Assembly: GCA_937146725.1 (NCBI GenBank)
Contig: CAKZRU010000041.1
Span: forward strand, 5,154 to 69,153
Length of the DNA stretch: 64,000 nucleotides
Origin: an uncultured Myxococcales bacterium
GTDB taxonomy: Bacteria; Myxococcota_A; Bradymonadia; UBA7976; VGTA01
Direction of reading: 5' to 3'
This document shows, one piece after another, positions 4,560 to 63,973 of this stretch. Position numbers and translations under genes: made by a program. Numbering within the stretch: the first letter of the stretch is position 1; every line of letters starts with the position of its first letter. The notes beneath the pieces are model-generated. The model made no database searches. It saw nothing but the letters and a program-made list of their open reading frames with translations, and was not told the DNA's origin.

Positions 4560-4782
4560 GCGATCACTTGTATGCTTGAGTTAAACATAAAAGTTAAGCT
4601 CAAGATGTATGTGAAGCTATTTCGCATGCGATTACCTCTCAAGTTTTCTTAAAGCTTTTTTATCATAAGACCATAAACTTATATAGCTTTTGTACTCACG
4701 ATCGAAAAAATCTTAAGAGTATGTTAACTTGAGATCAATGTTCATGTGTCATTTGATTATTTTGGCCAAAAGGATATCGTTT

Positions 4783-15159: not shown

Positions 15160-16518
15160 CTAGCCGATTTGCACGAGACGCGGCGCTCTTTTGAGCTTAG
15201 CTCGCCGTTCTTCATCGGTCCAAATTGATCCATCTTTCCAATGTAAAGCTAAGACTTTTTCCAAAGGAATACCCAAGATCTCTGGGGGAGCATTGGGCTC
15301 TTCATCGGGAATTGGAAATAGTCTTGTTTCAAAAACACCATGATCAAAGGGAATACCGGGCGGTGGGCTGACTCTGACTAACTGCTCATGAAGTCCACGC
15401 TGTTCATATTCCAAGGCTCGGTGGATACAGTATGGATTATTTCCCGCTTTACCCATGGTACAATGCGAAGTCCACGTACAGCCACCCATGCAAACATCAG
15501 CATAATAACATTCTTTACAGTAGCCCCAAAGGTCATCTCGGTTACGTAAACGGGTATGGCTCACCTCTTTAGCATTATGCAAAACATCAATGATGGCTTC
15601 GCTATGCGTGTAGCCACCGGTAAAGTAGTCAGAGGGCAAAGAAGGGCATCCTTTGATTTTACCGTCGGCTTCTACACCAATGCAGTTTTTTCCTGCTTTA
15701 CAGCCACTCCAATGTGTGCCCGACTCTCCGCCATAGCGTAAGATTTCTTCAAACGGACCAAAATAGCCAATGTTATTCCCCGGAAATAAGCGGGCACCGG
15801 CCGGTTTAAGTTTTTGGGTTTTAATCCAAGAGAGCAAAGGGAAAACATCAAGCAAGTCATACGGCTGTAAAAGCATGTCTGGACGGTCAGCGCCACGACC
15901 CATAGGTACAGTGATTTGGATTTGCCAACCGATTGCTCCCAAATCAATCAGTAATTGAGAAAGAGCAGGAAGCTCCGGAAGAGAAAGGCGATTAATTTGC
16001 GTATTCATGCTTACGCCCATTGAACTTTTGGCCACTCGCTCTGCACCATCAACCGCAGCTCGCCATGAGCCTAATACTGCCCGTTGAGCATCATGAGTGT
16101 GCTCAAGGCCATCGATAGAGAAGGAAATATGCCTAAGGCCAGCATCTTCGGCTCGCTTGACTCGCTCGGCATTCATCCCTCGACCGCCGGTGGTCATAGT
16201 GCATGCCATGCCACTTTTAGTGATCGCGGCCGCAATAATATCCCAATCTTCACGCAGATAGGCCTCGCCCCCAATTAAGGTGACCTCGGTAAAACCACTA
16301 TCTTTGAGTTGCTTCACCACATCAAGACATTGCTCAGTGCTCAGTTCATCATTACGAGCCTTGCCGGCTCGAGAGCCACAGTGCTTACAGCCTAAATCAC
16401 AGGCTAAGGTGATTTCCCAAACGCAGTATCTTGGCACCACTTGATCAGGAGCTGATTTTTCAGCAAATCGGGCAAATTGATTGGGTTTTTCTGTAGATGA
16501 CTTAATACTTGAACTCAC
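15160..16518 (-). CDS. radical SAM / SPASM-domain enzyme (PqqE/anSME-like peptide- or protein-modifying maturase) with ~80-aa C-terminal tail
   Basis: CDLGCKHC (Cx3Cx2C radical SAM cluster motif) near N-terminus after VWEITLA; GGEAYLR SAM-binding region; SPASM auxiliary cluster motifs SGCKAGKNCIGVEADGKIKGCP ... GYCKECYYADVCMGGCTWTSHC. Confidence 0.85.
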   Translation of the reverse strand: MSSSIKSSTEKPNQFARFAEKSAPDQVVPRYCVWEITLACDLGCKHCGSRAGKARNDELSTEQCLDVVKQLKDSGFTEVTLIGGEAYLREDWDIIAAAITKSGMACTMTTGGRGMNAERVKRAEDAGLRHISFSIDGLEHTHDAQRAVLGSWRAAVDGAERVAKSSMGVSMNTQINRLSLPELPALSQLLIDLGAIGWQIQITVPMGRGADRPDMLLQPYDLLDVFPLLSWIKTQKLKPAGARLFPGNNIGYFGPFEEILRYGGESGTHWSGCKAGKNCIGVEADGKIKGCPSLPSDYFTGGYTHSEAIIDVLHNAKEVSHTRLRNRDDLWGYCKECYYADVCMGGCTWTSHCTMGKAGNNPYCIHRALEYEQRGLHEQLVRVSPPPGIPFDHGVFETRLFPIPDEEPNAPPEILGIPLEKVLALHWKDGSIWTDEERRAKLKRAPRLVQIG

Positions 16519-16589: not shown

Positions 16590-17138
16590 TTATGGCTTGG
16601 CTTTATTGACCTTATCCATTTCTTCTGTGCCAGCCATTTCACCGGTCGAAGGTACGCCAGAATCTTCTTGTGGAATATCTTCTCTAGCGGGTTCCATCAT
16701 GATCGGACCGCCCACGAACTTGCTGACAGGAGAAGCACCATAAACTTCTTGTGGAATCTCTTCTCTAGCGGGTTCTATCTTTATTTCATCTTCAGTGGCC
16801 ATAATGCCAACCGGTGGGCCTCCGTATAGAGATTCTACCATCCCGGTGGGTGTATCAATCACTTTGGTACCAGGGGTATTTTCAATTACTTCGTCCTCAT
16901 CATCACACGCCCCAAAACTTAGGCTTGCACTTAATAAGCCAAGAGCAAGTTTTGACGTTTTTGAAAACTTAGAAGCTGTTTGAGATACAGCAGTATTACT
17001 GATGAGTTGTCCACCACAGAAAGTACATTCAAGTGCAAAGAGTTCAGCACTGCTCAAGCTAGAGTCAACTTGATGATGTCTAGCGCAAGTATTACAACGA
17101 GTTAAGCTATCTTTGGAAACAGCAATGATTTTTTTCAT
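16590..17138 (-). CDS. zinc-ribbon (CxxC-x19-CxxCG, FmdB-like) single-pass membrane protein with periplasmic acidic C-terminal tail containing duplicated EPAREEIPQE motif
   Basis: CNTCARHH...ECTFCGGQL; N-in signal-anchor SKFSKTSKLALGLLSASLSFGAC; IEPAREEIPQEVYG / MEPAREDIPQEDSG duplication; lies between M15 peptidase and rSAM genes on the same strand. Confidence 0.6.
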   Translation of the reverse strand: MKKIIAVSKDSLTRCNTCARHHQVDSSLSSAELFALECTFCGGQLISNTAVSQTASKFSKTSKLALGLLSASLSFGACDDEDEVIENTPGTKVIDTPTGMVESLYGGPPVGIMATEDEIKIEPAREEIPQEVYGASPVSKFVGGPIMMEPAREDIPQEDSGVPSTGEMAGTEEMDKVNKAKP

Positions 17139-20257: not shown

Positions 20258-20497
20258 TTGAGCCAAAATGAGTTAAACCTCCGACCATTGGAGGTCGTTG
20301 TAGATGGAGATAATGTAGAGCGTGCTATCAAGGCCCTCAAGCGTAAAGTTGCCCACGAAGGAATCTACAAAGAGCTCAAGCGCCGCCGTTTTTATGAGAA
20401 GCCTTCTGTAAAGCGTAAGCGTAAGCAACGTGAAGCAGAGCGTCGTCGTCGTAAAGAGCGTCGCCGTGCTTTACGTGCAAACGTTCGTCGTCGCTAA
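20258..20497 (+). CDS. rpsU: 30S ribosomal protein S21
   Basis: TTG start with AAAGG upstream; ...NVERAIKALKRKVAHEGIYKELKRRRFYEKPSVKRKRKQREAERRRRKERRR matches S21 core (FDVALRRFKR..REFYEKP..RKR..) and Arg-rich tail. Confidence 0.85.
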   Translation: MSQNELNLRPLEVVVDGDNVERAIKALKRKVAHEGIYKELKRRRFYEKPSVKRKRKQREAERRRRKERRRALRANVRRR

Positions 20498-26525: not shown

Positions 26526-27242
26526 ATGTCGAAAGTCATTATTCTCGTTCCGACTTATAATGAGATTGAAAACCTTGAAAAAGCGATTTCGGCGATTCAT
26601 CACCATGCTTCGCAGGCACATATTTTAGTCATTGATGATCAAAGTCCAGATGGCACAGGTGACTTGGCTGATCGCTTGGCTGAGCAAGACGAAAGAATAC
26701 ACGTTTTGCACCGTCAAGCTAAAGAAGGCTTAGGCAGAGCATATTTGGCTGGTTTTGCTTGGTCCTTAGCGTATGACTATGAACTCATCTTTGAAATGGA
26801 TGCTGATTTGAGCCATCCAGCAGAAGCGATTCCAAGAATGATGGAAGCGGCTCATCAGGGGGCTGATCTAGTACTAGGCAGCCGTTGGGTTAAAGGCGGT
26901 GGTGTTGTCGGTTGGCCACTTAAACGAAAAATACTGAGTCGAGGTGGAAGCCTTTATGCTCGACTCATTTTAGGTGCTCCGATTAAAGATTTTACGGGTG
27001 GATTCAAATGTTTTAAGCGAGACACCTTACTGCAAATTAATCTTGCTGATGTTAGTGCTGTGGGATATGGCTTTCAAATTGATTTGACTTGGAGAGCCTT
27101 GCAAAAGGGGCTAGTGGTGAAGGAGATTCCAATCATTTTCACAGATCGGGTGGCCGGTAAGTCTAAAATGTCAGCAGATATCTTTAAAGAAGCTTTACTC
27201 TTGGTTTGGAAGCTTCGCTTTGCGCAAAAAAACTTAAAGTGA
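26526..27242 (+). CDS. GT2-family glycosyltransferase, soluble Dpm1/Ppm1-like polyprenol-phosphate mannose (hexose) synthase
   Basis: VIILVPTYNEIENL, VIDDQSPDGT, EMDADLSH (DxD) motifs; 238 aa without TM helices. Confidence 0.8.
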   Translation: MSKVIILVPTYNEIENLEKAISAIHHHASQAHILVIDDQSPDGTGDLADRLAEQDERIHVLHRQAKEGLGRAYLAGFAWSLAYDYELIFEMDADLSHPAEAIPRMMEAAHQGADLVLGSRWVKGGGVVGWPLKRKILSRGGSLYARLILGAPIKDFTGGFKCFKRDTLLQINLADVSAVGYGFQIDLTWRALQKGLVVKEIPIIFTDRVAGKSKMSADIFKEALLLVWKLRFAQKNLK

Positions 27243-27292: not shown

Positions 27293-28780
27293 GTGAAGCT
27301 TGCCTTTTGGATAAAATTGAGCTGTGTGCTTGCTTGGTTTGCTCAAGTTTATCTGGTTGCTTATTTACCAGAGCTTGCGGATGAAGCCTATTATAAACGA
27401 TGGAGTGAGCAGCTAGATTGGGGGTACTTTGACCATCCGCCAGCGGTTGCTTGGTGGTTTTTAGCTGGAGGAAGAATCCTTAACCTTTGCCTTTTACCAC
27501 TCGCTTGGTTCAATTTTATCTGGGCCGGCCGACTCTTGGGAGCACGTCAATCGCCCTGGTTAGTTTGTTTGATTGCTTGGTCAACTCCACTTGGTTTAGC
27601 TTCGGGGGTATTAGTAACACCAGATATTCCATTATTGTTCTGTTGGAGCTTGGCGACTTTAGGCTATGCCTTAGCTTCCTATCCCTTGATGACTTTGGCT
27701 CTAAGTTTAGCTTTGTGGTCTAAAGCAATGATACTGCCGGCAATGAGTGGCTTATTGTACTTGTGTTGGACTGATCAACGCCTAAAGCCTAATCAAAGGC
27801 AAATCAGATGTATATTGATGTGCCTCACTATATTCATACTGTATATCCCACAGTTGTATTGGTCGGCGAATCATCATTGGCTGCCATGGAGTTTTCAAGG
27901 CGGAAGGCAGTGGAGACTGCTTTCAAGTTTTGAGTTTTTAGCAGGACAATTTTTAGTGGGTGGAGGACTATGGTTTATTTATCTCTTAAACAGTTATAAA
28001 GAGTTTATAGTAGACCACTATTCTATTGATTGGCTAACGAGTAATTGGGTAAAACGGACTGTATTTCGCCAAAATATAACTTCGGGGCCTACTTCGGTGG
28101 CAAGCACATCTGAAGAAACGGTTTTTAAAAGTTTAGAGTTTGATCGGGTTTGTTTCTTTTTATCAGTACCCACCATGCTTTGTTTTAGCTTGGTGAGTTT
28201 ATTGTTTAGAGTCGAAGCAAATTGGACTGCCTTAGCTTGGCCAATGGGACTGGTTTGGTTGGTGGAACGACTTCCCTATTATAAGTTGATAAGGGCTTGG
28301 AAAGGGTCATTATTATTTGTTCTGCCTTGTTTATTACTCCCGATCATTCATCACTTGATCCCCTTATCTTGGGGGCCTCCCAGAGATGGAGAAAAACTAA
28401 AGAATTGCCTGAATGCAGTACAAAACTCTCAACCAGATATTCGTTATTGGGTTGCCGGACGCTATCAAGAAGCGGCTTTATTAGGCCTAAATCTTGATCA
28501 ACATAATGCTCAGCAACTGAGTAAAAATCATAGGGTAAGCATTATTTACCAAAAAGCTTTTGGGCGTAGGCAAAGCCAATATGATTTAAGTGTCAATAGG
28601 CAAAAACTTCAGCAAGAACACTTAACTTGTCATTCACTGTGGCTTGGCCCCAAACAATGGGCTCAAGGGATTTGTGCAGCGGAAAACATAGATTTAAAAG
28701 AGGAAGATAAAAACTGTCGACTCTCTCTTTCTCGCTGTCGCTGTCCGGTGGATAAACATCGAACTTCTGTTGTGGAGTAA
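27293..28780 (+). CDS. GT-C fold polyprenol-phosphate-dependent glycosyltransferase (GT39 PMT / GT83 ArnT-like) with C-terminal soluble domain
   Basis: GTG start; many TM helices; first-loop acidic motif YLPELADEAYYKRW...DHPP characteristic of PMT/ArnT-type GT-C enzymes; directly downstream of Dpm1-like GT2. Confidence 0.65.
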   Translation: MKLAFWIKLSCVLAWFAQVYLVAYLPELADEAYYKRWSEQLDWGYFDHPPAVAWWFLAGGRILNLCLLPLAWFNFIWAGRLLGARQSPWLVCLIAWSTPLGLASGVLVTPDIPLLFCWSLATLGYALASYPLMTLALSLALWSKAMILPAMSGLLYLCWTDQRLKPNQRQIRCILMCLTIFILYIPQLYWSANHHWLPWSFQGGRQWRLLSSFEFLAGQFLVGGGLWFIYLLNSYKEFIVDHYSIDWLTSNWVKRTVFRQNITSGPTSVASTSEETVFKSLEFDRVCFFLSVPTMLCFSLVSLLFRVEANWTALAWPMGLVWLVERLPYYKLIRAWKGSLLFVLPCLLLPIIHHLIPLSWGPPRDGEKLKNCLNAVQNSQPDIRYWVAGRYQEAALLGLNLDQHNAQQLSKNHRVSIIYQKAFGRRQSQYDLSVNRQKLQQEHLTCHSLWLGPKQWAQGICAAENIDLKEEDKNCRLSLSRCRCPVDKHRTSVVE

Positions 28781-28907: not shown

Positions 28908-30020
28908 ATGACTTCTACAACAAGCGAAATACACGAACTTAAGGTGCCGGTCATAGACTTAGATAAGCTAAGAGAAGGTGATGCGGATGAACTTGCTAAC
29001 CTAGCTTATGGTTTAGGCGATCTTGGTTTAATTCATATCAAGAATCATGGTATTGATGCCGAACAGCTCGATTCATTTTATGCAGCCTTTCAAGAGTTTT
29101 GTGCTAAACCCATGGCCGAAAAAGAAAGCTTGAGTCAGGCGCATGTTTGGTTTCAAAGAGGGTGGACTCCCCCAGATACAGAAAAAGCTGTACTCGCTGG
29201 TGGGCAACCGGATTTCAAAGAATGTTATTTTGCGACCCCCGAAGAAATTGATCCCTTTCTACAAGCTGAATACCCTCAGATCTTTGCTGACAACATATGG
29301 CCGGCTGATGCTCAGGAAAGTGGCTTTGCTGATCGTTATTTAACCATTGGTCGTCAGCTTCATCAGATTGGTTTGAGTTTATTAGAAGGAACTGCTCAAG
29401 CCTTGAAGCTTCCCAAAGACACTTTCACTCGTTTTGTGCAAGGGGGGGCTCATGTCACAAGAGCACTACACTATTTACCCTTGCAGGAGTCACAAGTAGA
29501 TACAGGAGTTCGTTGGGGAGAGGAACACACTGATTTTAATCTACTTACGCTTTTACCAGGGGGTCGTTTTTATTATGAGAATGGTGAAGCTTATACACCA
29601 AAGGGGGTATCAGGCCTCTATCTTAGAGCTCGGGCTGATGAACAGCATCCTCAAGGACGACGCGTCAAAGGTTCAGCACCAGCTGGTTGTATTGTTGCTC
29701 AAGTTGGTCAGCAGTTAGAAATCTTAACCGGTGGTAAGCTGTTAGCGACCCCTCATGAGATTTTACCACCTAATGAAGCTGGTGTGCATCGTTCCTCTAT
29801 GGCGCATTTTATTCATAGTCATCCTCACCAAGTATTGATGCCGTTTGAACAGTTTAAAACTCCAGAAGCCATACAAGCTTACCGCCCACCGGTTTTAGCG
29901 GGTAACTATTCTTTAAAAACTTTGGTTGATATCGGACTAGCACCAAGCGAAGAGCTTGATAAGTTAGGATATCGCCACTATCGACGCTTGGCCGAGCAAA
30001 GAGCTCAAGAGGGTCGTTAA
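28908..30020 (+). CDS. 2OG-Fe(II) oxygenase, isopenicillin-N-synthase/flavonol-synthase-like family
   Basis: N-terminal non-haem dioxygenase-N-like region (LGLIHIKNHGI); HYLPLQE...EEHTDFNLLTLL (HxD) ... ATPHEI (distal His) motifs. Confidence 0.7.
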   Translation: MTSTTSEIHELKVPVIDLDKLREGDADELANLAYGLGDLGLIHIKNHGIDAEQLDSFYAAFQEFCAKPMAEKESLSQAHVWFQRGWTPPDTEKAVLAGGQPDFKECYFATPEEIDPFLQAEYPQIFADNIWPADAQESGFADRYLTIGRQLHQIGLSLLEGTAQALKLPKDTFTRFVQGGAHVTRALHYLPLQESQVDTGVRWGEEHTDFNLLTLLPGGRFYYENGEAYTPKGVSGLYLRARADEQHPQGRRVKGSAPAGCIVAQVGQQLEILTGGKLLATPHEILPPNEAGVHRSSMAHFIHSHPHQVLMPFEQFKTPEAIQAYRPPVLAGNYSLKTLVDIGLAPSEELDKLGYRHYRRLAEQRAQEGR

Positions 30021-30157: not shown

Positions 30158-33100
30158 TCAGTGATAAATGGTGACTTTAAGGATATTTTGATCGTAACTC
30201 AATACAGCAAAGTCATCCTTACCATCATCATTCATATCACCCGCTCCGGAAGTGGCGATCTTTTGTCCGCTCGGTGCTGATGCACTGAGTGATACACCAC
30301 GCCCCACAGTGACTTGGTCAGAACCAAAGCTTGCATTACCATCATTATAGAAGACAAAGACCTGCTCGGCATTACTGAGTGTATTATCTTCATTATTGGC
30401 AATCAAGTCCATAAAGCCGTCCCCATTAATGTCTCCTGCCAAGTCAAAACGTGAACCAAAGCGATTTTCACCACGGCGGAAGCAATCGAGTTGCTGTAGA
30501 TCACTTGACATCACTACCATAAGCTTATCTGACGCATTACCTACCACAAAGTCAGCGTTATCATCACCGTTAAGATCTACACCACCTCTGAGCATCGTTC
30601 CAAAACTTGTTGGCCCTAGCTCAGCACAGGGATTATCCACTTCGATAAAGTCTGGATTTGTACCATCAAAAGTCAGTTCTCCACCATTCGTAGCAAGCGC
30701 TGTTTCTAGGGTGCTGCCACCGTAGACTAAGTGGAGGTGGTCAATGCTGTCACCGGCCGAGAAGATAAGCTCAGAAGTACCATCTCCATCAAGATCACCA
30801 GCGGTCGATACTTGTACACCGGCATTATTGTAGGTGCTTGTCAATTTGTAATATCCATCAGAAACACTTGGTGTCACAACATCTTGAATCACGGCCGGCC
30901 ACTGGCTACGACCTTCAATGATGGTGACAAAGGTGTTGTAGTTAAAGCTAGGATCAAAACCACCACCAAGCACAATATCATCACAACCAACCGCAAGACC
31001 TTGAACCAAATCACCCCGATTTGATAGAGCAACGCGTGAGTGTCCGGGACTGAAAATAACACTATCGGCTGTGGCCAATTCGCTATTAGTACAGTTTTGA
31101 GCTAACGGACAGCCAAAGTATACGGCAAAGGCTGACCCATTAAAATCGAGCGGATAGCCCGCTACAACAATGTCAGGTGCTCCGTCTCCATTCACATCAC
31201 CACCACTAGTGACCTCAATACCAAAGAGTAAATTACTCATTTCTACGGGGATATTGAGTGCCAAGGTGTTGCTATTTAATACACTTAAATCATCCATACC
31301 CTTAATGATTAAGACATCACTGATAAAGTCTGGACCAACGGATTGGGCCGAGTTGACCATTAGGTCATCATAGCCATCACCATCAAAGTCGCCGATTGAG
31401 TTAAGAGCGTTTCCTGTGGTGAAAGTCGGCTGGGTACTATCCCAATTACCGCTTCTTGGGTTAAAGTTCACAGTGGCTCGGTTGAGTCGAGTATCGATGA
31501 GCGCTGAACGAACTGCACCAAGGCGACCAACATCATCACGAGCGCGAAGGGATAAGTAGAAACTCTTGTTAGGCGGCAAGTTCTCGATAGACAAAGTCTC
31601 AATGGCACCCGGCTGAACGCTTGGAATAAGTTCATTAAGCAAACGAGCAGACTCCCAAGTTAACTCACTGTTGATATTGTTGAAAGACCAACGAGCCTCA
31701 TAGGCTTGAACTCGATCTCCACCACTTTGATCATCACCAGGTGCAGTAAAGCTTACTTCAACTTCTGGAATACGCTTGTTCATCACAGTTGGGTTAAGTG
31801 TGATTCCGGTGGGGGCTGAAGGGTCAGCGATAATGGTAAAGCTTTGGCAACGCTCATTTTGTGCTTCATCACTGATGCATAATTGGTAGCTTGCTTCTCT
31901 TGCCGGTGGGTTAAGCCCAGTGATACGTAGTTCAACTGTATCTTCATTGGGCGCAGGGTCATCTACACTAATCTCTAAGGGGAGCTGTACGCCATCAATC
32001 GAGATTCGAGCGCTACGAGAAGACGTGCTGGGTGCTTCTGTAACGGTTGCAACAAGTGTCATTTGCTGTCCGGCTGCTTCAGGGTCATTATCCTGTAACA
32101 CCTGTCTTACGCCTTCTGCATTAAGGGCAGGCGAGGTAATCACAATCGAGCTTGGGGCAATTAAGTCAACTCGGATATTTTTGCCTAAAGATGAGGTGAC
32201 TTCATTGTTTAAGCGAATTCGAGTTGAAACACTGTGTTCCCCTTCTGGAATTGTAACTTCGCTGAAAACAATATCTCCGGTACTTTGATCGATAGTTGTT
32301 GAGCCCAAAAGTTCACTACCATCTAAAAGTAACTCCGCCTGAGCGCTTGCACATTGTGGATCCAACAGATCAACACGACCACTAATATCAAGTCTTAGCT
32401 TGTTATCAGCAGTGACGATCCCCTGATTTGGCCCAAGAAGTTGGCCACTAATCAGACTGGTAATTTGACTGCTACACCCATCGATCGCAATATCGATATT
32501 CTTTGCTTGCGAAGTACTTGGGTTTTCGCAGGCATCTTCGCTTCTGACACTTAAGGCATGTGGCCCCGGAGGTAGGGTTAAGACCGCTGTGAGAGTTTGA
32601 CTATCAGCCACAGTAGTGATTAATTGAGCAGGTAAAGTGGGTAAGCGCTCCTCACCACTGTAGATTTTTAGTTCTTGGCCGGCTTCTAGTCCAGTAGCGT
32701 CAATACTTACATTTACTTGGAAACCGTCAGCTGGAGACTGATTTGCATCATCACTGGCAAGCAGAGTTTGTCCATCATCAACCCCATTTAAGACCAAAGT
32801 TGGTGCGCTTAAGTCTACTGAGATTGGCACAGACAAAGGTGCAGACCAATCTGGACGATCACCAATCGTATTAAAGCCCGCTACGCTACCAGCGTTACCA
32901 CAGCTATCTTCGGCAACAAGAGATAAGAGATGATTGCCCTCTGATAAAAGAATGGTCGAAAAGGTAAAGGTAGGATTTGAGACCGTTTCTCGTTGTACGA
33001 TGATGCCATCAAGGCCCAAGCTTAAAGAGACCGGTTCGCCTTCTACCCAACCAGAGCTTACTTGAGGTTGATACTGAGCACCGGCCTGTGGCTCAAGATC

Positions 33101-36100
33101 ATCCGCGATATTGAGACATTGGTTGGCCATAGGTCGTAATAACTCGGGAGTAGGTGCTTCAGTGTCGATGAGCAGTAAAAGAGGAGCAAAGCTTTCATCA
33201 TCTTGGTTGGGTAAAGAGTTACCGACAACATCAGTACCTGCCAGATAAATAAAGTGTTCACCTTGAGGCAAGTTTACATTTGAGATAGAACCACGACCTT
33301 CCGATATTTCAACGCTACCTAAGGGAACTTGGCCTGGCAAAGAGAAAACTCGGACTAAGCGGTTATCTTCAATACCATTGACTTGGAAATCAACAGTAAA
33401 ACTTGCGTTACGACTGCTTGCACTCGCATTGATGCGCTCTTGTGCGTTAATGCATTGATCATCATTAAGATCTTCGGCAATCGAGATTTCGACTACGTTT
33501 GGCGCGGTGCAATCACTTAGAATTGAAATGGTATTTGAACGTAAATCAACGCCATTTTCACGAGCGACTAAGGAAATGTCATGCTGGCCGTCACTTAAAG
33601 TGATTGGACAGCGGATATTGTTCCCCTGCGCACTTGTACTACATTGACCTTGAGAAGCATCGCTTTGATTACCACATAAGGGAGACAAAGCACCGGCTTG
33701 GTTAGAAGCACATAAAGCGAACTCAACATTTTCAATATCGGTAAAACCCGCACTTCTTACATCAACTTCGATTTGACAGCCGGCTGTTTCTAAATCCTGA
33801 TCTTCGCTTCGGTTAATTAAGGCTTGATCTCGAGGCTCAATAATCACAATGCTCACGTTGGTATCACCTTCGATATTTTGACTAAACTCTTGTGTGTTTC
33901 CACAAGCATCGCTCACTGTCGCGGTAAGTAGTTGACTGCCATTGGTATAGGTGAGTAGGCCTAAATCTACAGTTTCACATTCTTCTTCTCCTAAAGTGTT
34001 AGTGATGGCCTCTTCACTTTGGGCTGGAATGGTGGCTACAGTCATTACTTGTCCTGCTGCACCACAGACTCTTACGCGAGTTGGAAACTGAATGCCGGGG
34101 ACGAGGCCATCATTATCATCCAGTAGATCAAGAATTGTATCGGGAGCCGGTAGAACGAGTTCTACTTCAGGTGGAGTTCGGTCAACTGTAAGGCTGAATT
34201 GCTGAGACATGGGTAAGCCACTCACATCCATCGCAACAAACTCTAAATCGCATTGGCCATCCGGTAAGGTCACTGTTGAAAAGGTAATTAAGGCCGATTG
34301 TCCAAGATTGATTACTGCACCATTTTGCTCATCAACAAGTTCTCGTTGATCATTGCCTGGTAACTGACAATAAACTTGGACCTGAGGAATACTATTTGCA
34401 GCTAAAGCATCAGCATCGACTTCAAAGCGCATTTGGAAGCCTGGTGCTGATGAACGATCTTGAACTTGATTATTTAGACATTCAGCGACATCACTTAACG
34501 GACGGACCGAGAGCAGAGGCCTAATTTCATAGCTGGTAAGATTTAGGGATTGACCACGTCTTTGCTCTGATACTGGCGTTAAGATGATCTCTGTAGCTCC
34601 ATCAAGACTTGTCGGTAGGGTTACAGCGAGCTCACCTAAACCAAGAGAGTCTAAGGTCAGAGGGCCAACAATCATGCTTGGCTCAGCATTTACATTAAGC
34701 TCGAAGTTTACGATCTCATTTGCATTACCGCTCAGTGAGAGAGATATTTGTAAGCCTTCGGTTTCATTGTCAATATCATTAAGCAAGGTGACTCCAGAAC
34801 CATCGCTCCAATTGGTGACTCTGAGTGGTGCCTGACAGCCTTCTGCATTGAGAGTAAAGTCAAACTCACTGCTTGCGCCCGCACAGTCGATGACCTGCAT
34901 GTTGATGGTGTTTTCACCAGGAATAAAGTTATAGCTAGGTGTTCTTACAATCCCTTGGGCTACTTGATCAGTACAGGTGGGTAAGCTTCCGTTTAAGCTA
35001 AAGCAAACTCTTTCAGCACTTTCATCACTCAAAGAGAACTCAACCGAAGATTGAATGCAGTCTGAAAGATCAGAGTTTTGGTCATTGGCTAAGGTGAGTG
35101 AGCCATTGGCCGGATTTAGAGGGCCTACTACCGGTACTTCGTTATCGATCAGTACTTCGATAGGATCACTAGGGATAACAGAAATATCAACCCCACCGCT
35201 GGTGCCTGAAATGACTAAGCTGTAGCGACCATCGGCCAATTGCTGATTGGTTAAATCCAAAGAAGTGCTGTAAAAGTTGCTATCTTGAGCCTGTAGCTGT
35301 CCAAAGCGGGCAACCTGACCGCCTTCACTATACAAAGTATAATTGAGCTCGGTATTACCTTCCGAGAATTGACGAGCTTCTCCACCAATAAAGAATAAGT
35401 CAGAAAAACAAGCATAAGTTCGACCATTGGAATTAGGCGCAACAATAGGATCAAGGATTTCAAAAATAGGTTCATCTGTAATGACCGGATAAAATGAGCT
35501 CGCTAAAACCGGTTCGTTTTGTCCGGTCATAGCGACCGGCTTACATGAGTAAGTATCGGCTCTTGGGAATGAGACAAAAATCGGTCCTTGATAGACACCA
35601 GATTCACCTTCGACAGCGCTTAATTCACTACGTAAAACGGAACTAATGCTAAGGACTTCAGAAGAACCACCTTCACCTCGTGCACAATGGATTTCAATCG
35701 GATAATCCTCACTCTCTCTTTGATCTTCGACTCTGATCGTAAATTGAGTTTGTAAACCTTCATTTTCTGGATCGATATCAGTGTTGATAAGCTCGAGTTG
35801 AGCCGGATCTACGATTGATAAACGTGGGGTTACACCATCAAAGCAAAAACTGTAACTTGGGGTTTGATGCACGCCTCCACATTGATCATCACCACTAATT
35901 GTAATTTGATGGCCACAGAGATAATCGCCTTCAAGTTCGATCGTAAAACGACCTTGACCGTCTAGCGTCAGTGTTTCAGGCGCATTTTCGAGTGGCGGCT
36001 CAATGGTTAATCTAACCTCTGAGTTTGCAGGAAGATTAGAAGTAAAGCCATTAATTCTCCACTTTAAAATCGCTTCGCCTTGAGCATTAAAGCTAGTGAT

Positions 36101-37228
36101 GGCTTGACTTAGGTTTCTTCGGTTAACACCGATTTCTTCAAATTGATCAATAGAAAGTTCAGGATCTGTTGTATCAACATCAAGCACATAGGTATCAACA
36201 TTAGCCCCAAGTCCATTTTCACTTTGTGCTCGTGCGCTAATTGTATTTTCACCATTATTTAGGGTCACAACAAGGCTCGCTTCTCCATCCACCACAGTGG
36301 CCGGAGTATAACTTTGTCCGTTCACTGTCCAAATGACTTGTTCGCAGTCACTTGTTGCCTTGAGTTCAGCTTGTAGTCCTGGACGGTCAGGATCAACATC
36401 AGCGGTTGCACCAATATCACAACCATCCATTGGCGCAGGGCTCAAAATAAGTTCACACTCACTTGCATTTACCTCAACCGATACACTCGCCTCGAGTAGA
36501 CCATTAGGACCGGTCGTAAATGCGCGCAATTCATGTGTGCCTGATAAAGGAAGGGTAACACTTTCAAAAAAAGCTTTGCCATTTTCAACTTGAGTGCGAA
36601 CTGGATTTCCACCATTCACTTCGACTTCCACAAGATTACTGAGATTGGCGACTGGCCCATTCACTTCGATTTCAACCGGAACTTGTACGCCATTGGTTAA
36701 GTCATTATCTAGGTCATCACTTGCAGTAAAGATTGTTCCTTCAACCGGATTAATGAAAGAGATAGAGCTTTCATTGACACCGCATAAAGGGCTTTCGGGG
36801 TCAATCTCAACAGTGATCGCAAGGGTTGCGCTAGCGCGTTCAAGCTCACCGTTTAAAAGTTTTGCTTCAAACTCATAGTTACCAGCACTTAAAGCAAGAT
36901 CACTAAAGATGACCCGACCATCATCGGTTAAGGCTCGACGTTGGGCTTCAAAGCGACTTGGCATTGCGCTCAGCTCAATGACAAGATTATCTAATTCAGA
37001 AGCCGGGGCTTGTGCGCTTAAGCTAACAGCGATATCAATTTCATTGGGTGTAGATCTTTTAAGATCATCGGCACACCCAAGTATACTATCGGCTTCGGGT
37101 AATATAAACGAGAGTTCATAGCTCTCGGGCTTAATAGGTTCATCATCACAGGCAACCATGCCGAAAAGACTTAGGCAGAGAGCCCAACAAAGCGACAGTG
37201 ATTGAAAGTGTTGTTTTTCAGTGTTCAT
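30158..37228 (-). CDS. giant (2356 aa) surface lipoprotein adhesin with tandem Ig-like/cadherin-like beta domains, an FN3-like domain and C-terminal FG-GAP (integrin-alpha-like) beta-propeller repeats
   Basis: Lipobox LCLSLFGMVAC; long beta-rich repetitive body; FN3-like PSAPTGITLNP...; FG-GAP/Ca-binding repeats DFDGDGYDDLMV, DVNGDGAPDIVV, DLDGDGTSELIFS, DLNGDDNADFVV, DINGDGFMDLI, DMNDDGKDDFAV. Confidence 0.85.
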   Translation of the reverse strand: MNTEKQHFQSLSLCWALCLSLFGMVACDDEPIKPESYELSFILPEADSILGCADDLKRSTPNEIDIAVSLSAQAPASELDNLVIELSAMPSRFEAQRRALTDDGRVIFSDLALSAGNYEFEAKLLNGELERASATLAITVEIDPESPLCGVNESSISFINPVEGTIFTASDDLDNDLTNGVQVPVEIEVNGPVANLSNLVEVEVNGGNPVRTQVENGKAFFESVTLPLSGTHELRAFTTGPNGLLEASVSVEVNASECELILSPAPMDGCDIGATADVDPDRPGLQAELKATSDCEQVIWTVNGQSYTPATVVDGEASLVVTLNNGENTISARAQSENGLGANVDTYVLDVDTTDPELSIDQFEEIGVNRRNLSQAITSFNAQGEAILKWRINGFTSNLPANSEVRLTIEPPLENAPETLTLDGQGRFTIELEGDYLCGHQITISGDDQCGGVHQTPSYSFCFDGVTPRLSIVDPAQLELINTDIDPENEGLQTQFTIRVEDQRESEDYPIEIHCARGEGGSSEVLSISSVLRSELSAVEGESGVYQGPIFVSFPRADTYSCKPVAMTGQNEPVLASSFYPVITDEPIFEILDPIVAPNSNGRTYACFSDLFFIGGEARQFSEGNTELNYTLYSEGGQVARFGQLQAQDSNFYSTSLDLTNQQLADGRYSLVISGTSGGVDISVIPSDPIEVLIDNEVPVVGPLNPANGSLTLANDQNSDLSDCIQSSVEFSLSDESAERVCFSLNGSLPTCTDQVAQGIVRTPSYNFIPGENTINMQVIDCAGASSEFDFTLNAEGCQAPLRVTNWSDGSGVTLLNDIDNETEGLQISLSLSGNANEIVNFELNVNAEPSMIVGPLTLDSLGLGELAVTLPTSLDGATEIILTPVSEQRRGQSLNLTSYEIRPLLSVRPLSDVAECLNNQVQDRSSAPGFQMRFEVDADALAANSIPQVQVYCQLPGNDQRELVDEQNGAVINLGQSALITFSTVTLPDGQCDLEFVAMDVSGLPMSQQFSLTVDRTPPEVELVLPAPDTILDLLDDNDGLVPGIQFPTRVRVCGAAGQVMTVATIPAQSEEAITNTLGEEECETVDLGLLTYTNGSQLLTATVSDACGNTQEFSQNIEGDTNVSIVIIEPRDQALINRSEDQDLETAGCQIEVDVRSAGFTDIENVEFALCASNQAGALSPLCGNQSDASQGQCSTSAQGNNIRCPITLSDGQHDISLVARENGVDLRSNTISILSDCTAPNVVEISIAEDLNDDQCINAQERINASASSRNASFTVDFQVNGIEDNRLVRVFSLPGQVPLGSVEISEGRGSISNVNLPQGEHFIYLAGTDVVGNSLPNQDDESFAPLLLLIDTEAPTPELLRPMANQCLNIADDLEPQAGAQYQPQVSSGWVEGEPVSLSLGLDGIIVQRETVSNPTFTFSTILLSEGNHLLSLVAEDSCGNAGSVAGFNTIGDRPDWSAPLSVPISVDLSAPTLVLNGVDDGQTLLASDDANQSPADGFQVNVSIDATGLEAGQELKIYSGEERLPTLPAQLITTVADSQTLTAVLTLPPGPHALSVRSEDACENPSTSQAKNIDIAIDGCSSQITSLISGQLLGPNQGIVTADNKLRLDISGRVDLLDPQCASAQAELLLDGSELLGSTTIDQSTGDIVFSEVTIPEGEHSVSTRIRLNNEVTSSLGKNIRVDLIAPSSIVITSPALNAEGVRQVLQDNDPEAAGQQMTLVATVTEAPSTSSRSARISIDGVQLPLEISVDDPAPNEDTVELRITGLNPPAREASYQLCISDEAQNERCQSFTIIADPSAPTGITLNPTVMNKRIPEVEVSFTAPGDDQSGGDRVQAYEARWSFNNINSELTWESARLLNELIPSVQPGAIETLSIENLPPNKSFYLSLRARDDVGRLGAVRSALIDTRLNRATVNFNPRSGNWDSTQPTFTTGNALNSIGDFDGDGYDDLMVNSAQSVGPDFISDVLIIKGMDDLSVLNSNTLALNIPVEMSNLLFGIEVTSGGDVNGDGAPDIVVAGYPLDFNGSAFAVYFGCPLAQNCTNSELATADSVIFSPGHSRVALSNRGDLVQGLAVGCDDIVLGGGFDPSFNYNTFVTIIEGRSQWPAVIQDVVTPSVSDGYYKLTSTYNNAGVQVSTAGDLDGDGTSELIFSAGDSIDHLHLVYGGSTLETALATNGGELTFDGTNPDFIEVDNPCAELGPTSFGTMLRGGVDLNGDDNADFVVGNASDKLMVVMSSDLQQLDCFRRGENRFGSRFDLAGDINGDGFMDLIANNEDNTLSNAEQVFVFYNDGNASFGSDQVTVGRGVSLSASAPSGQKIATSGAGDMNDDGKDDFAVLSYDQNILKVTIYH

Positions 37229-37333
37229 AACTCACCTTATTTTTTGGAGAAAGCTTAATTAAAGCTGAAATCATTCTCATGTGAGGGACTAGAGTTTAAG
37301 AAGGGTCAGTAAATATTAATTAGGAGATGATCA

Positions 37334-37639
37334 TCAGACGAATTGAATTAACTGAGCGTTGCTCAGTTCATTGAGAAATTCCTCAAGATCACTTTCTGCA
37401 GATGAAAGAGTTGTATCAAAAGTTTTGATTACCGCTTTGAGTAAGTCGTCTCGATTGCATGTCGACTTGAGAATCAGTGACCAAATAAATGTACCTACTT
37501 CATTCAATTGACGGATTTCATCACGATTGGTATCAAGAATAAGCGCTTGCTCACCAATAATACGGGAAACAACATAAGCATTAGGTTTAATGACCGGTTG
37601 AGATGCTGAAGTTTCGTCAGATTGAGAAGGGCTTGTCAT
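37334..37639 (-). CDS. PqqD-family protein (stand-alone RiPP recognition element-like peptide chaperone)
   Basis: VIKPNAYVVSRIIGEQALILDTNRDEIRQLNEVGTFIWSLI...DLLKAVIKTFD...AESDLEEFLNELSNAQLI matches PqqD profile (P...v..d.e.vll....g....LN.tg..IW.ll.....D....f...L...gli). Confidence 0.65.
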   Translation of the reverse strand: MTSPSQSDETSASQPVIKPNAYVVSRIIGEQALILDTNRDEIRQLNEVGTFIWSLILKSTCNRDDLLKAVIKTFDTTLSSAESDLEEFLNELSNAQLIQFV

Positions 37640-37810
37640 AATAACTCCGCTTGTTGATCGTATTTAGCTTATACATATACAAAATCTATTGATAGTATAC
37701 CACAAAACAAATGCAAGCTTCTCAGCAGACTTGAATAACTTTTAACCTGCTTCACCGATTGAGTCCTTTTGATGTATCGTCGTTTTCCAAAAGATAAAAA
37801 GTAGCAGTCC

Positions 37811-38920
37811 ATGGTTATGAATGTTGGACACAGAACAAGTTTAACCTTGTATGTTTGGCTAATTCTCAGCCTTGTTCAGAGCTTTTCAGTAGCAGAAGCG
37901 GCCTTGGTTGTTTTACCATCAGGGGAACCTCACTCCTTGATGTGGGAACGAGTTTTAATTGTTTATGATAGTTTATCTAAACAGCAAACTGTGATTGGTG
38001 AGGCCGCTGTATCGAGTTCTCCTAGTCAATTTGCAGTTTTGATCGCTACGCCTAAAAACGCGGTGATTAATTATACAACAACTCGAATCTGGAGGAAGCT
38101 AAGGCCATATATTAAAGTGCCAGAACGAACGGTTCGAGCATTGGATTTATCCGTTGATTCTTGGTTATGGAATCGCTTTGCTTTTCAAGACCAAAAAGTG
38201 GCCAAGCATAAAGAGCATATCGATGTCCTCAAGTCTCGAGACACACAAGTACATATTCAAGAGCGCGCCTTACATGAATGGCTGATTAGCCGTGGATTAA
38301 GTTTGAGTCCACAGCAGGCCCTAAGTATTAAAAAAGTATATCAGCTTGGTTTTTCTGTGGCTGCACTTCATGTACGTCCCAGACACAAAGCAAATGAGGC
38401 CTTGGCTGACGAAACTTGGACATCGACATGGATCTTTTCTTATGAGGTTGATAAACCACATTATATGTCTTTATGGCCAAGCCAAAAGGAGTTTGCTCGG
38501 TTCAATCAGAAGGACCTGGCGCAAGCTCATCAAAATAATTTAAGCTCCACAGATAAACTCAAGCTTACCTTTATTTCAGATCAAGCTCTAAAACCAAAGC
38601 ATCGTTCGATTAGCGAAACAGAGGATGAACAAATTGACGGACTTTTAAAAAGTTTAGATCGGCTTCAGCTCAAGGCTCTAAACCAATCACTTAATGCTCA
38701 AAATTGGTCATTTAACCGCCGAGGTATCTTAAGCCATTTTGAGCTTAACGCGCCCTTAGGTTTACAGCACATTAGGGCTGTGGCTTGTGATGAAAAAAAG
38801 ATTATTGCTCCGCCTGCCAAGCTCAAAGTACAAAACTATAAACTGTCTATACCCATTGAAGTTTTATTGGGCTTGATTTTAGCTTTTACTTTAATCTTAA
38901 AGAAGAAATCTAAGTATTGA
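37811..38920 (+). CDS. hypothetical exported protein with N-terminal signal and C-terminal TM anchor (possibly DUF2330-like)
   Basis: Signal TLYVWLILSLVQSFSVAEA; C-terminal IEVLLGLILAFTLILKKKSKY anchor. Confidence 0.5.
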   Translation: MVMNVGHRTSLTLYVWLILSLVQSFSVAEAALVVLPSGEPHSLMWERVLIVYDSLSKQQTVIGEAAVSSSPSQFAVLIATPKNAVINYTTTRIWRKLRPYIKVPERTVRALDLSVDSWLWNRFAFQDQKVAKHKEHIDVLKSRDTQVHIQERALHEWLISRGLSLSPQQALSIKKVYQLGFSVAALHVRPRHKANEALADETWTSTWIFSYEVDKPHYMSLWPSQKEFARFNQKDLAQAHQNNLSSTDKLKLTFISDQALKPKHRSISETEDEQIDGLLKSLDRLQLKALNQSLNAQNWSFNRRGILSHFELNAPLGLQHIRAVACDEKKIIAPPAKLKVQNYKLSIPIEVLLGLILAFTLILKKKSKY

Positions 38921-61801: not shown

Positions 61802-63973
61802 TTAATTTAAGTCTAGTTGGCTCCAAGCTTCAGCTAAGCCTTTTTGGGCTGGTAAATAGATAAATACTTGATAATGACCTGGGTTCATCTGGATCGGTAC
61901 TTGTGCTTTAAAACGATAAAAGCCCCGAGCATCAATTTGACCCCAGCCGGAAAGCACGACTCCATCTATTTTACTTTTTAAGGCGGCTAAAATATAGCTA
62001 TTCTTAAGTAAGTTTTTTTGCTTGCGGGTCGCCTTTTTAATCCGCCCTTTAAGAGTCATTAAATCACAGCGATGTAAGTCGGTATTTGACAAAGAACGTA
62101 AGGTAATCTGCAGGTTTGAAGATGGCTTTGGAAGCTGATTGATTTCTTGATGAAGAAGTAGATTAAGGTCGCTTAATACTTGAGTTTGTACTTTTAAACT
62201 CAAGCGTGGGCGATTTTGATAAGCATTGGGACAGGAGGCAATATCAAAGCGAGCTTTAATGCTTTCTTCGAGTTCCTTTTGGTTATTCTTTAAAGCTTGA
62301 GTCTTAAAGGCTTGATTCTTTAAAGCTTGCGTGATTTCGGGTGCTGTTTTATCAAGGCGATCATTCCCTTTGTTCTTGATTAGAGAAGACGTAGAAGATG
62401 TTTCTTTGGTTGGGGGATTTATGTTTGTTGACTCAGTATCTTCTAATTCTTCCCCTCGTTCATGATTGACAGAGGTAAGTGATGATTTATTGGGACTTGG
62501 ATGATCTTGACCATTAGCCCTTGAACTGGTTGAGCTTTCTTTAGCTTCAATATCTTGTGGTTTTAGTTTTGAATGAGTTAAGTTCTGCTCACCTTGAGTC
62601 GTTTTTTGGGTTTGTAGTTTGTTTTGGATCTTTTCTTGCTCTTTTTGAGAACTTAAAAAAGGCTTTGGCTGTGGTAAGCCATCATCCGGTCGGTAAGTTT
62701 GGGGTGCTTGCTGAGTTTGATTGAGTACATCTTGGGTCAAACCAAGATCTTCTGGCGCAATCCCTTCTCCACCTAAATCAACCCTACGCCAGCGACCATT
62801 TGGATCCAATACTTCCACAAAGGCATGGACTTGATTGGTGACATAACGCGTGGGTATTCCCAAGGCTCTTGCGGTCACCATAAAGGCATAAGAACGGTGT
62901 CGACAAACACCAATTTGGCTCAGAGTTAAGCGCTCGTACACCGATCCACCTTGCTCGACTTGTTCACCAGGTACAAAGGCTCTAAAGTAATCACTGAGCT
63001 GAAAGATTAAATGCTCAAAAGAGTCAGAATGCTTTGCCTCAAGATTAAAAAGTTGTGCACTCAAATGAAGGGCCTGCCGTTGTAAGTCATCAGGTAAAGC
63101 AAGATTGGGGTGATCTTTGAGTTCTGATAAGCTTAGGCTTGAACGCCATGACCCCGAAAAATATGAAAGTGGAGCCGTGATCACCAAGGCTAATTTATCA
63201 AGCTTTTTTAGGCTTGAATCCGGAGGTGCTGAAAGATAAAAGTTGCCTGCATCATCTTGACTTAGGATCACAGTAGAACCCAGACCAAGGCTTACTAAAG
63301 ATTGCTCAGGAGAAACCGAGGCCACTCCCCGAGGGCGAGTCACATCAAGCCAATTTTGGGTAGAAAATATACCCATAAAACAAGCACTGCCTACTTGAAG
63401 GCAAAGTTGTTGTAAGCAGCCCATATCTAAATCTTGGGCCTGATACCACTGACGTTCACCGAGTGAGAGATAGTGATTTTGATCAGGGGATTCATTGCTT
63501 GCTGACTTTAAACAGGCCTTTAGTTGGGGCAGCTCAATATTTTCAATTTCAGTTAAACCACCGATCTGCACTGCAAGTTCACCGGAATCTTTAATCGTAT
63601 TCCAAACTGTCATTCGTTTATGAGGAGTAACACTTGGCATAAACTCATGGGTATAATTAGGCAAAATGGGTGTACCTTCTGTATCTAAATCCATTTGATA
63701 TTCTCTTTGATTACGAGAACTCGGTGATTCATACAAAGGTTGCTCAGTTGCTTGGCCAAGAGCATTCCAAAGTTCAGCTTGAGCTTGACTAAGTAGGGAA
63801 GGATTAAGATCGACAGGTAGAGATTCTTGACTTGTAAGCTGAGAATTTGAACGTTCTTTGGCCTTTTGCCACTGCCATAATCTGCGCATATATTTGGGAG
63901 GTGGGGTTGGCGCCTCACTCACGCGTATCGAGCTTTCTTTTAAAACATTAGCAAGTGATTTAATGGGGGGCAC
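61802..63973 (-). CDS. transglutaminase-like cysteine protease superfamily protein with long low-complexity linker; 5' end may extend beyond annotated GTG (no upstream in-frame stop before window end)
   Basis: Core GVCRHRSYAFMVTARALGIPTRYV...HAFVEV...WRRVD (Cys-His-Asp triad order of transglutaminase-like domain); GTG at 63973; upstream 27 nt in frame without stop. Confidence 0.65.
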   Translation of the reverse strand: MPPIKSLANVLKESSIRVSEAPTPPPKYMRRLWQWQKAKERSNSQLTSQESLPVDLNPSLLSQAQAELWNALGQATEQPLYESPSSRNQREYQMDLDTEGTPILPNYTHEFMPSVTPHKRMTVWNTIKDSGELAVQIGGLTEIENIELPQLKACLKSASNESPDQNHYLSLGERQWYQAQDLDMGCLQQLCLQVGSACFMGIFSTQNWLDVTRPRGVASVSPEQSLVSLGLGSTVILSQDDAGNFYLSAPPDSSLKKLDKLALVITAPLSYFSGSWRSSLSLSELKDHPNLALPDDLQRQALHLSAQLFNLEAKHSDSFEHLIFQLSDYFRAFVPGEQVEQGGSVYERLTLSQIGVCRHRSYAFMVTARALGIPTRYVTNQVHAFVEVLDPNGRWRRVDLGGEGIAPEDLGLTQDVLNQTQQAPQTYRPDDGLPQPKPFLSSQKEQEKIQNKLQTQKTTQGEQNLTHSKLKPQDIEAKESSTSSRANGQDHPSPNKSSLTSVNHERGEELEDTESTNINPPTKETSSTSSLIKNKGNDRLDKTAPEITQALKNQAFKTQALKNNQKELEESIKARFDIASCPNAYQNRPRLSLKVQTQVLSDLNLLLHQEINQLPKPSSNLQITLRSLSNTDLHRCDLMTLKGRIKKATRKQKNLLKNSYILAALKSKIDGVVLSGWGQIDARGFYRFKAQVPIQMNPGHYQVFIYLPAQKGLAEAWSQLDLN

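Follow-up and report, generated by a model that had tools for sequence, protein, structure and literature searches.

Discrete recognition elements (RREs) for peptides made on the ribosome and modified after translation (RiPPs) serve as class-independent markers for RiPP clusters, and are expected beside maturases. A stretch of 64,000 nucleotides (nt) from an uncultured Myxococcales bacterium, referred to here as the window, encodes such an element, a PqqD-family protein of 101 amino acids (aa), directly upstream of the gene for a giant lipoprotein. Which client would this RRE serve, and is the giant gene its partner or a chance neighbor? Here the RRE is regarded as an adaptor belonging to the giant-lipoprotein system, and its gene as a fixed, co-transcribed upstream partner of the giant gene, a reading to which we assign a probability of roughly 0.6.

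The RRE protein and its pairing with the giant lipoprotein gene

The initial annotation had placed the 101-aa protein in the PqqD family, and both the profile search and a fold model agreed with this placement. PF05402 (PqqD) matched with 47.9 bits (E 1.7e-12; gathering cutoff 23.4) over residues 33-98, equivalent to positions 3-67 of the 67 in the profile. The NCBIfam matches at E ≤ 10 were all PqqD-type peptide chaperones, every one under its cutoff (lasso_PqqD_Bac 33.2 bits, lasso_PqqD_Strm 24.2, ScmD 21.3 and GeoRSP 15). An AlphaFold2 (AF2) model built from 27 sequences (predicted local distance difference test, pLDDT, 74.8) placed strands at residues 23-28, 31-36 and 41-44 and helices at 47-57, 63-74 and 78-94, the strand-strand-strand-helix-helix-helix order of the RRE fold. 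In a Foldseek comparison with the PDB the first rank was taken by TbiB1 with its bound leader (5V1V; TM 0.77/0.88, root-mean-square deviation 1.3 Å, 27% identity), followed by another lasso B1 protein and then by the RRE domains of ThcOx, CteB, SuiB and LynD. The top six PDB matches are lasso RREs with bound leader peptides, and TbiB1 was also found by sequence with the subfamily profile (E 3.6e-12). The protein is thus a PqqD-type RRE by family and predicted fold.

Fifty-eight homologues were found, all of them small proteins and all but one fragment with a PF05402 match. Among 20 RRE sequences (47-96% identity), 26 positions are invariant, and these concentrate in the motif VSR..QALILD..DEIRQLNEVG.FIWS and in the last helix (A81, D84, F88, L92), so that the best-conserved residues fall in the beta2-beta3-alpha1 stretch and in alpha3. 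In characterized RREs the leader is engaged by beta3 (PMC12710340). The ratio of nonsynonymous to synonymous substitution rates (dN/dS) was 0.11 against L001, the nearest locus with available DNA, and 0.15-0.29 against the others with estimable dS, values that are rough with dS near saturation. The gene is under purifying selection. The 58 homologues, the dN/dS of 0.11 and a conserved DNA element upstream of the gene together indicate that the open reading frame (ORF) is real and not a chance one. A GGAG lies 8 nt 5' of its start; the product lacks a signal peptide and, as read from the sequence, has a net charge of about -7, with about 15 acidic residues (D/E) to 8 basic ones (K/R).

In an exhaustive HMMER search of 1.84 billion cluster representatives, the number of clusters rose from 8 (E ≤ 1e-30) to 847 (E ≤ 1e-10) and 15,023 (E ≤ 1e-3), so that the subfamily is small and grades into the general PqqD family. 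A single one of 185,579 GTDB species representatives, an uncultured metagenome-assembled genome (MAG), carried a member. Genomic context was compared for about a dozen distinct subfamily sequences, at loci labelled L001 and so on. At every locus with an RRE at least 34% identical to that of the window and with enough DNA, the N-terminus of a giant protein was encoded directly downstream on the same strand (L001-L003, L005, L007, L016-L023 and L025-L031, about 12 distinct sequences). The spacing between the two genes ranges from a 4-nt overlap to about 255 nt, and the GC content of the paired loci from 37% (L031) to 74% (L018). The giant orthologues are colinear, 2295-2364 aa long, and their full-length identity to the giant of the window goes from 68% down to 30%.

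The flanks of the pair change between clades. Upstream, RluA and a divergently oriented gene for an exported protein are found in the low- and mid-GC clades, and genes for electron-transfer flavoprotein (ETF) beta/alpha in L019 and L020; homologues of the divergent protein (28-58% identity) occupy the same position in L001, L002, L005, L016, L025 and L029, and it is only in the low- and mid-GC clades that this protein adjoins the RRE gene. Downstream, the window, L001, L002, L005, L021 and L025 carry a 2-oxoglutarate (2OG)-Fe(II) oxygenase gene and glycosyltransferase-like genes, L016/L017 have glycosyltransferase-like genes only, and L018 and L024 have a cassette with a radical SAM (rSAM) enzyme. 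The oxygenase gene is absent after the giant in L016/L017, L018 and L024. In the deep clade L029 an oxygenase with 57% identity lies past a tRNA gene in the other orientation, co-directional with the giant; the tRNA-like sequence, read by eye, is at about 9480-9560 on the opposite strand, between the giant and oxygenase genes.

None of the more distant PqqD proteins (25-34% identity) is accompanied by a giant; their genes belong to ordinary lasso clusters (L012-L014, with PqqD and an asparagine synthase) or to glycosyltransferase clusters (L010, L015). Since the flanks change and the distant PqqD proteins lack a giant, the adjacency of the RRE and giant genes is the sole invariant of the locus across clades. 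The initial annotation had presented the giant as a mere neighbor, a view that this invariance contradicts; a system link between the two genes, as opposed to an accidental one, is well supported. A literature search, weak evidence given its incomplete coverage, turned up no earlier account of a fixed link between an RRE and a giant lipoprotein gene or of the cassette of L018 and L024.

In the two glycosyltransferase clusters (L010 4941-9930, L015 9965-15056) a 150-aa PqqD-domain protein with 25-26% identity heads a conserved operon. That of L010 encodes a 367-aa protein without family, three family 2 (GT2) glycosyltransferases and a protein similar to N-acetylglucosamine (GlcNAc) 2-epimerase, and adjoins an HTTM/vitamin-K-carboxylase-like gene; L015 has ORFs that match those of the L010 operon in size, sizes being all that was compared. 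This is another non-canonical RRE context.

The giant protein has an N-terminal lipobox (FGMVAC) followed by DDEP; Ig-like domains of the Big_13 type form an array in it, and an FG-GAP beta-propeller is found at its C-terminus. The gap between its gene and the RRE gene was as described in the initial annotation, and no promoter-like and no terminator-like site was found inside it. The two genes are probably co-transcribed. In L029 the RRE stop overlaps the giant start (ATGA), which suggests translational coupling of RRE and giant.

The 5' side of the RRE gene holds a conserved non-coding element. Its core contains TTGCAT, 11 nt, an extended -10-like TGgTATACT (37694-37702) and then ATCAATAG. 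By blastn the element is 86% identical to L001 and 76% to L002 over 80-87 nt, exceeding the coding sequence in conservation (the L002 RRE protein is only 57% identical), and the aligned block is present in L001, L002, L005, L016 and L025. When the intergenic regions around the unit were compared with related loci by blastn and tblastx, this element alone was recovered and no conserved small ORF. It is not coding, because it is conserved at the DNA level in all frames. Judged by eye, with no call made by a consensus scanner, the element is probably the promoter/operator of the RRE-giant unit, and the divergent gene may use it as well.

A fuller operon in L018 and L024

The fullest locus is L018, whose RRE and giant are 44% and 30-31% identical, respectively, to those of the window. 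Twenty nt after the giant stop lies a 60-aa ORF, followed by overlapping genes for a 303-aa ScmC-like protein, a 396-aa protein with Radical_SAM and SPASM domains and a 151-aa protein. L024, from an NCBI MAG annotated as Myxococcales bacterium (72% GC), was found by a search with the C-terminal propeller of the giants and shows the same order after the giant: a 54-aa ORF, an ScmC protein (PF27840), a 403-aa rSAM and a 139-aa protein. In both loci the cassette genes are separated by gaps of 20-22 nt or overlap. Identity between L018 and L024 is 62% for the rSAMs, 47% for the ScmC-like proteins, 52% for the small C-terminal proteins and 42-46% for the short ORFs.

The two short peptides have in common RRPY(E/R)KP(D/G)F-x6-FER-x2-L-(A/S)-C-(A/S)-G, further Cys residues and a C-terminal Ser, with the Y-x-x-P-x-F motif located 37-38 residues from the C-terminus. 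Lasso precursors have YxxPxL as their leader motif, spanning positions -17 to -12 (PMC10368454). The motif H-x14-G-x2-G-x-G-K-S...D-E, found in the ScmC-like proteins, has the spacing of the catalytic motif reported for BsfK, an HPr-kinase-like kinase of a lasso precursor; BsfK activity is strongly stimulated by its discrete RRE, BsfB1, which recognizes YxxPxL as shown by experiment (PMC10368454). The best NCBIfam match of the L018 RRE was ScmD (38.8 bits) and that of the L018 ScmC-like protein was ScmC (27 bits), both below cutoff. The rSAMs of the two loci have Radical_SAM and SPASM domains, are NirJ2/AhbD-like by best NCBIfam match and have no room for a fused RRE, and the only RRE in the L018 operon is the gene upstream of the giant. 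The small C-terminal proteins are called peptidase-like only, because their similarity to S24/signal peptidases is weak (15 bits by Pfam in L018, none in L024).

On these sequence features, the two loci, both from high-GC lineages of Myxococcales type, can be read as one operon with an RRE (seen in L018 only), a giant, a candidate precursor, a kinase-like protein, an rSAM/SPASM enzyme and a peptidase-like protein. The cassette looks like a hybrid RiPP cassette, SCM-like and lasso-like, which encloses a 7-kb lipoprotein gene and is apparently undescribed.

Contents of the window and the search for partners

Table 1. Coordinates of the features discussed, in the window unless a related locus is named.
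Feature	Position	Strand	Description
RRE gene	37334..37639	-	101 aa, ATG start; discrete PqqD-family RRE; PF05402 match
RRE-giant spacer	37229..37333	-	105 nt; holds the ribosome-binding site of the giant (AAGGTGAG)
Giant lipoprotein gene	30158..37228	-	2356 aa; Pfam FG-GAP 55.6 bits, Big_13 49.4 bits
Conserved non-coding element 5' of RRE gene	37644..37730	-	core 37686-37719; divergent intergenic region
Divergent exported/membrane-anchored protein gene	37811..38920	+	369 aa; signal-peptide-like N-terminus, C-terminal hydrophobic helix
2OG-Fe(II) oxygenase gene	28908..30020	+	DIOX_N and 2OG-FeII_Oxy (Pfam); convergent with giant gene
Multi-pass membrane protein gene	27293-28780	+	495 aa; N-terminal DEAYY motif; no Pfam match
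GT2 polyprenyl-phosphate-sugar-synthase-like gene	26526-27242	+	Pfam GT2 103 bits
rSAM/SPASM peptide-maturase-like gene	15160..16518	-	only rSAM in the window; 20.8 kb from RRE gene
Cassette after giant	L018 7579-10238; L024 4535-7054		peptide, ScmC/HPr-kinase-like, rSAM/SPASM, peptidase-like

In the window, the neighbors of the RRE gene are the giant, an exported protein without family, RluA and an acyl-CoA dehydrogenase. The exported protein that the RRE gene faces, already seen in the initial annotation, had no Pfam and no NCBIfam match. Pfam scans of every window ORF of at least 100 aa detected no lasso cyclase/Asn_synthase, short B2-type leader protease, YcaO, pqq genes or RRE-adjacent RiPP maturase, and no maturase was found within a few genes of the RRE gene, which therefore stands alone, as the initial annotation had claimed. 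The tailoring-type enzyme closest to the RRE gene is the 2OG oxygenase, on the far side of the 7-kb giant gene. The tailoring-type enzymes of the window other than the rSAM are this oxygenase, a WelO5-like halogenase (4729-5634) and a 723-aa transglutaminase-core protein (61802-63973), the only Transglut_core protein present, 24 kb from the RRE gene.

Beyond the 3' end of the giant, the GT2 and membrane-protein genes are conserved in synteny in the window clade. The best NCBIfam matches of the GT2 gene were AglJ and dolichyl-phosphate hexose transferase, below cutoff, and the DEAYY motif of the 495-aa membrane protein makes it look like a GT-C (PMT/ArnT-like) glycosyltransferase. The two genes could constitute a periplasmic glycosylation pair adjoining the giant. 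Rfam detected one tRNA-Trp in the window and nothing else.

The WelO5-like halogenase is a 301-aa protein encoded on the forward strand (PF22814, 127.8 bits, a carrier-protein-independent Fe/2OG family), and its gene adjoins those of a VWA protein, an OmpA-family protein and a 1619-aa protein. The latter (8139-12998, forward strand) contains multiple DUF7107 repeats (243 bits).

The rSAM of the window scored 464.8 bits with TIGR04103 (cutoff 725) and 436.3 bits with TIGR03913 (cutoff 591.75). Its CxxxCxxC starts at residue 40 and so leaves no room for a fused N-terminal RRE; the earlier description of the only rSAM as lying some 20 kb away without an RRE of its own was accurate. It differs in type from the rSAMs of L018 and L024 (22-28% identity), and its neighbors are a 182-aa zinc-ribbon/membrane protein and an M15 peptidase. 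Beside it there are no cassette companions (precursor, ScmC-like or peptidase-like), and no precursor candidate with a leader motif was found nearby. With all cassette proteins of L018 and L024 as queries, tblastn on the window recovered only the RRE, the giant and a weak generic rSAM match (15160-16518).

The 182-aa protein (16590-17138, reverse strand), whose gene lies just upstream of that for the rSAM, shows a CxxC...CxxC zinc ribbon and no family match. It contains an internal lipobox-like/signal-anchor segment, LSFGAC followed by DDEDE, which echoes the VAC-DDEP of the giant, and a repeated xYGxxPV.

Precursors were sought with strict and loose leader patterns in the window and in every window-clade locus, translated in six frames, and none of the L018 type was detected in any of them. 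The only hits, those of a search for intergenic small ORFs with Y/F-x-x-P-x-hydrophobic included, were the bS21 gene and one non-conserved ORF, and both were rejected as precursors. The bS21 gene (20258-20497, forward strand) encodes KRRRFYEKPSV, which equals the L024 leader KKRRPYEKPDF at 8 of 11 positions, an odd likeness that is probably due to chance.

Proposed role of the RRE and alternative explanations

As suggested by its fold and by characterized RREs (PMC12710340), the discrete cytoplasmic RRE would capture a short linear segment as an extra beta-strand on beta3 and alpha3. In the full systems this segment would be a YxxPx-hydrophobic (YxxPxF) leader, like the lasso leader motif, and the bound peptide would be handed to partner enzymes, there the kinase-like protein and the rSAM. 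The window lineage keeps only the RRE-giant unit at this place, followed by the 2OG oxygenase and two glycosyltransferase-like genes, and the client of the RRE is not encoded in the 64-kb window. The likeliest client, which we favor tentatively, would come from an unlinked set of precursor and maturase genes, the product of which would work with the giant. Ranked next, and more doubtful, is a client that is itself a segment of the giant pre-protein, an option favored by the fixed position of the RRE gene before the giant, not beside enzymes, and by the ATGA overlap in L029. In its specific form, RiPP-type recognition machinery would serve a giant surface protein: the RRE would bind the 2,356-aa lipoprotein precursor at a linear segment, during translation where the genes overlap, and would keep it export-competent or present it to tailoring enzymes; this seems unlikely, and no earlier case of an RRE acting on a macromolecular client is known to us. 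If true, it would account for the fixed place of the RRE gene upstream of the giant and not next to maturases. Alternatively, the RRE could load a matured small peptide onto the giant.

Several observations weigh against the RRE as an adaptor of the giant-lipoprotein system. No precursor, ScmC-like or peptidase-like homologue was found anywhere in the 64-kb window, and no Y/F-x-x-P-x-hydrophobic motif is common to at least four of six aligned giants, which weakens the option of the giant as client. Much of the low-GC synteny (RluA, the divergent protein, the oxygenase) is also conserved, so that the adjacency partly reflects slow rearrangement. The L024 contig begins inside the giant, and RRE and cassette are therefore visible together in L018 only; the cassette lineages may be sisters, in which case the cassette could be a single late acquisition and not ancestral. 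Confidence in the RRE model is moderate (pLDDT 75).

The initial annotation had raised a partnership in trans, in which the RRE would deliver a precursor peptide to the rSAM/SPASM enzyme of the window. This enzyme is clearly peptide-maturase-like by its TIGR04103 and TIGR03913 matches, although both are below cutoff, it is the only rSAM present and has no fused RRE, and in relatives the RRE subfamily can share an operon with an rSAM/SPASM enzyme. However, the giant-linked rSAMs of L018 and L024 are NirJ2/AhbD-like enzymes of another type, the companions of their cassette are missing around the window enzyme, which has different neighbors and no leader-motif precursor nearby, and the enzyme and the RRE are tied only by sharing the same 64 kb. 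The partnership thus found no support and is improbable. The other possibility raised in the initial annotation, a novel role for the RRE, is now more sharply outlined. We give similarly little credence to a repurposing of the RRE as an adaptor for the 2OG oxygenase, possibly with the glycosylation genes, to guide hydroxylation or another modification of the giant or of some other peptide. The oxygenase follows the giant in the window and in five other loci, with a sixth case in L029, and RREs are reported to raise the turnover of precursor hydroxylation in other systems (PMC10368454 and references there). Nevertheless, the RRE is kept in L016/L017 and L018, where no oxygenase follows the giant (it is also missing in L024, where the RRE end is off the contig); in the window the oxygenase gene is convergent with the giant and thus not on the same transcript, and in L029 the tRNA gene separates the two. 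DIOX_N-type oxygenases, moreover, mostly act on small molecules, and no substrate peptide was identified for such an adaptor.

Loss of function would be another way to account for an RRE without a maturase, the gene being a functionless remnant of a lost RiPP cassette, kept only because of its place inside the transcription unit of the giant. The rest of the L018/L024 cassette is indeed absent from the window, but the RRE frame is intact in all lineages, with its invariant residues and low dN/dS, the Shine-Dalgarno sequence and the upstream element are conserved, and the predicted peptide-binding parts are the best conserved of the protein, which makes a remnant very improbable. The RRE fold is related to winged helix-turn-helix domains, and together with the conserved operator-like element upstream this could point to a DNA-binding regulator of the giant gene instead of a peptide binder. 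DNA binding is argued against by the strongly acidic character of the protein, and all significant structural and sequence matches are leader-binding RREs; we regard such a regulator as close to negligible in probability.

Comparison with known systems

The lasso B1 proteins (TbiB1, 5V1V/5V1U; TfuB1, 6JX3; BsfB1 of Bradymonas sediminis) resemble the window RRE in size (about 85-100 aa), PF05402 match and predicted fold. The relatives' precursor has YxxPxF, which is near the YxxPxL of lasso leaders, and their loci have an HPr-kinase-like protein in common with phosphorylated-lasso clusters (PMC10368454). The bsf lasso cluster of B. sediminis (Bradymonadales) is reportedly bordered by an FG-GAP repeat protein (PMC10368454). 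Unlike lasso systems, neither the window nor the relatives' cassettes have a cyclase (Asn-synthase-like) or a short B2 protease; the cassettes hold an rSAM/SPASM enzyme and a small S24-like protein, and the RRE gene is fixed to the giant. The lasso B1 models scored well below cutoff (NF033536, 33.2 bits against 80; NF033530, 24.2 against 70), and BsfB1 is only 27% identical to the window RRE and 26-27% to the subfamily. L012, a true lasso cluster reached via a distant PqqD relative, shows PqqD and Asn_synthase, whereas the window does not. A lasso system was rejected for the window RRE, given that cyclase and short B2 protease are lacking.

ScmD of the SynChlorMet system (TIGR04248), which occurs with ScmC and the rSAM/SPASM enzymes ScmE/ScmF, is PqqD-like, as is the window RRE. 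In the relatives one operon holds the giant gene together with those for an ScmC-like protein and an rSAM/SPASM enzyme, and in L018 this operon opens with the RRE gene. Compared with SynChlorMet, there is one rSAM instead of two, and the RRE gene is separated from the others by a 7-kb lipoprotein gene. Scores remained far from the cutoffs (ScmD, 21.3 bits for the window RRE and 38.8 for the L018 RRE against 100; ScmC, 27 bits for the L018 protein against 125). The SynChlorMet partners ScmC and ScmE/F are absent from the window and are partly represented in L018 and L024, by the PF27840 ScmC-like protein and one rSAM/SPASM enzyme.

PqqD of pyrroloquinoline quinone (PQQ) biosynthesis belongs to the same Pfam family, with the same fold, and serves the rSAM/SPASM enzyme PqqE as a stand-alone peptide chaperone (PMC10906245). 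The window has no pqqA/B/C/E, no PQQ-specific PqqD model was matched at E ≤ 10 in NCBIfam, and the Xanthomonas campestris PqqD (3G2B) was a poor structural match, at rank 19. With no pqq genes, a PQQ system was rejected. The HPr-rel-A system pairs a chaperone (TIGR04353) with HprK-related kinase A, and the L018 operon likewise pairs a PqqD-family protein with an HPr-kinase-related P-loop protein. Scores were below cutoff for the L018 RRE (25 bits against 35, TIGR04353) and for the L018 ScmC-like protein (20 against 200, TIGR04352); the window RRE had no TIGR04353 match at E ≤ 10, and no nucleotidyltransferase was seen.

In lineages that differ widely in GC, a whole RRE subfamily is thus tied to a single giant lipoprotein gene. 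In its fullest locus, one putative operon with a 7-kb lipoprotein gene also encodes a candidate precursor with a lasso-like leader motif, a protein similar to HPr kinase and an rSAM/SPASM enzyme. This offers two leads: a candidate new RiPP-like cassette that would combine lasso-type recognition with rSAM chemistry, and a possible functional tie of a modified peptide or its chaperone to a conserved giant protein of the cell surface in uncultured Myxococcota-like bacteria of marine and soil habitats. For genome mining, it is a caution that an "orphan" RRE can signal a conserved non-canonical partnership and not a broken cluster. Among the known systems, the window RRE is nearest to lasso B1 in structure and nearest to ScmD by the gene company of its L018 orthologue; its family assignment is ordinary, while the conserved RRE-giant unit and the hybrid operon are the unexpected part.

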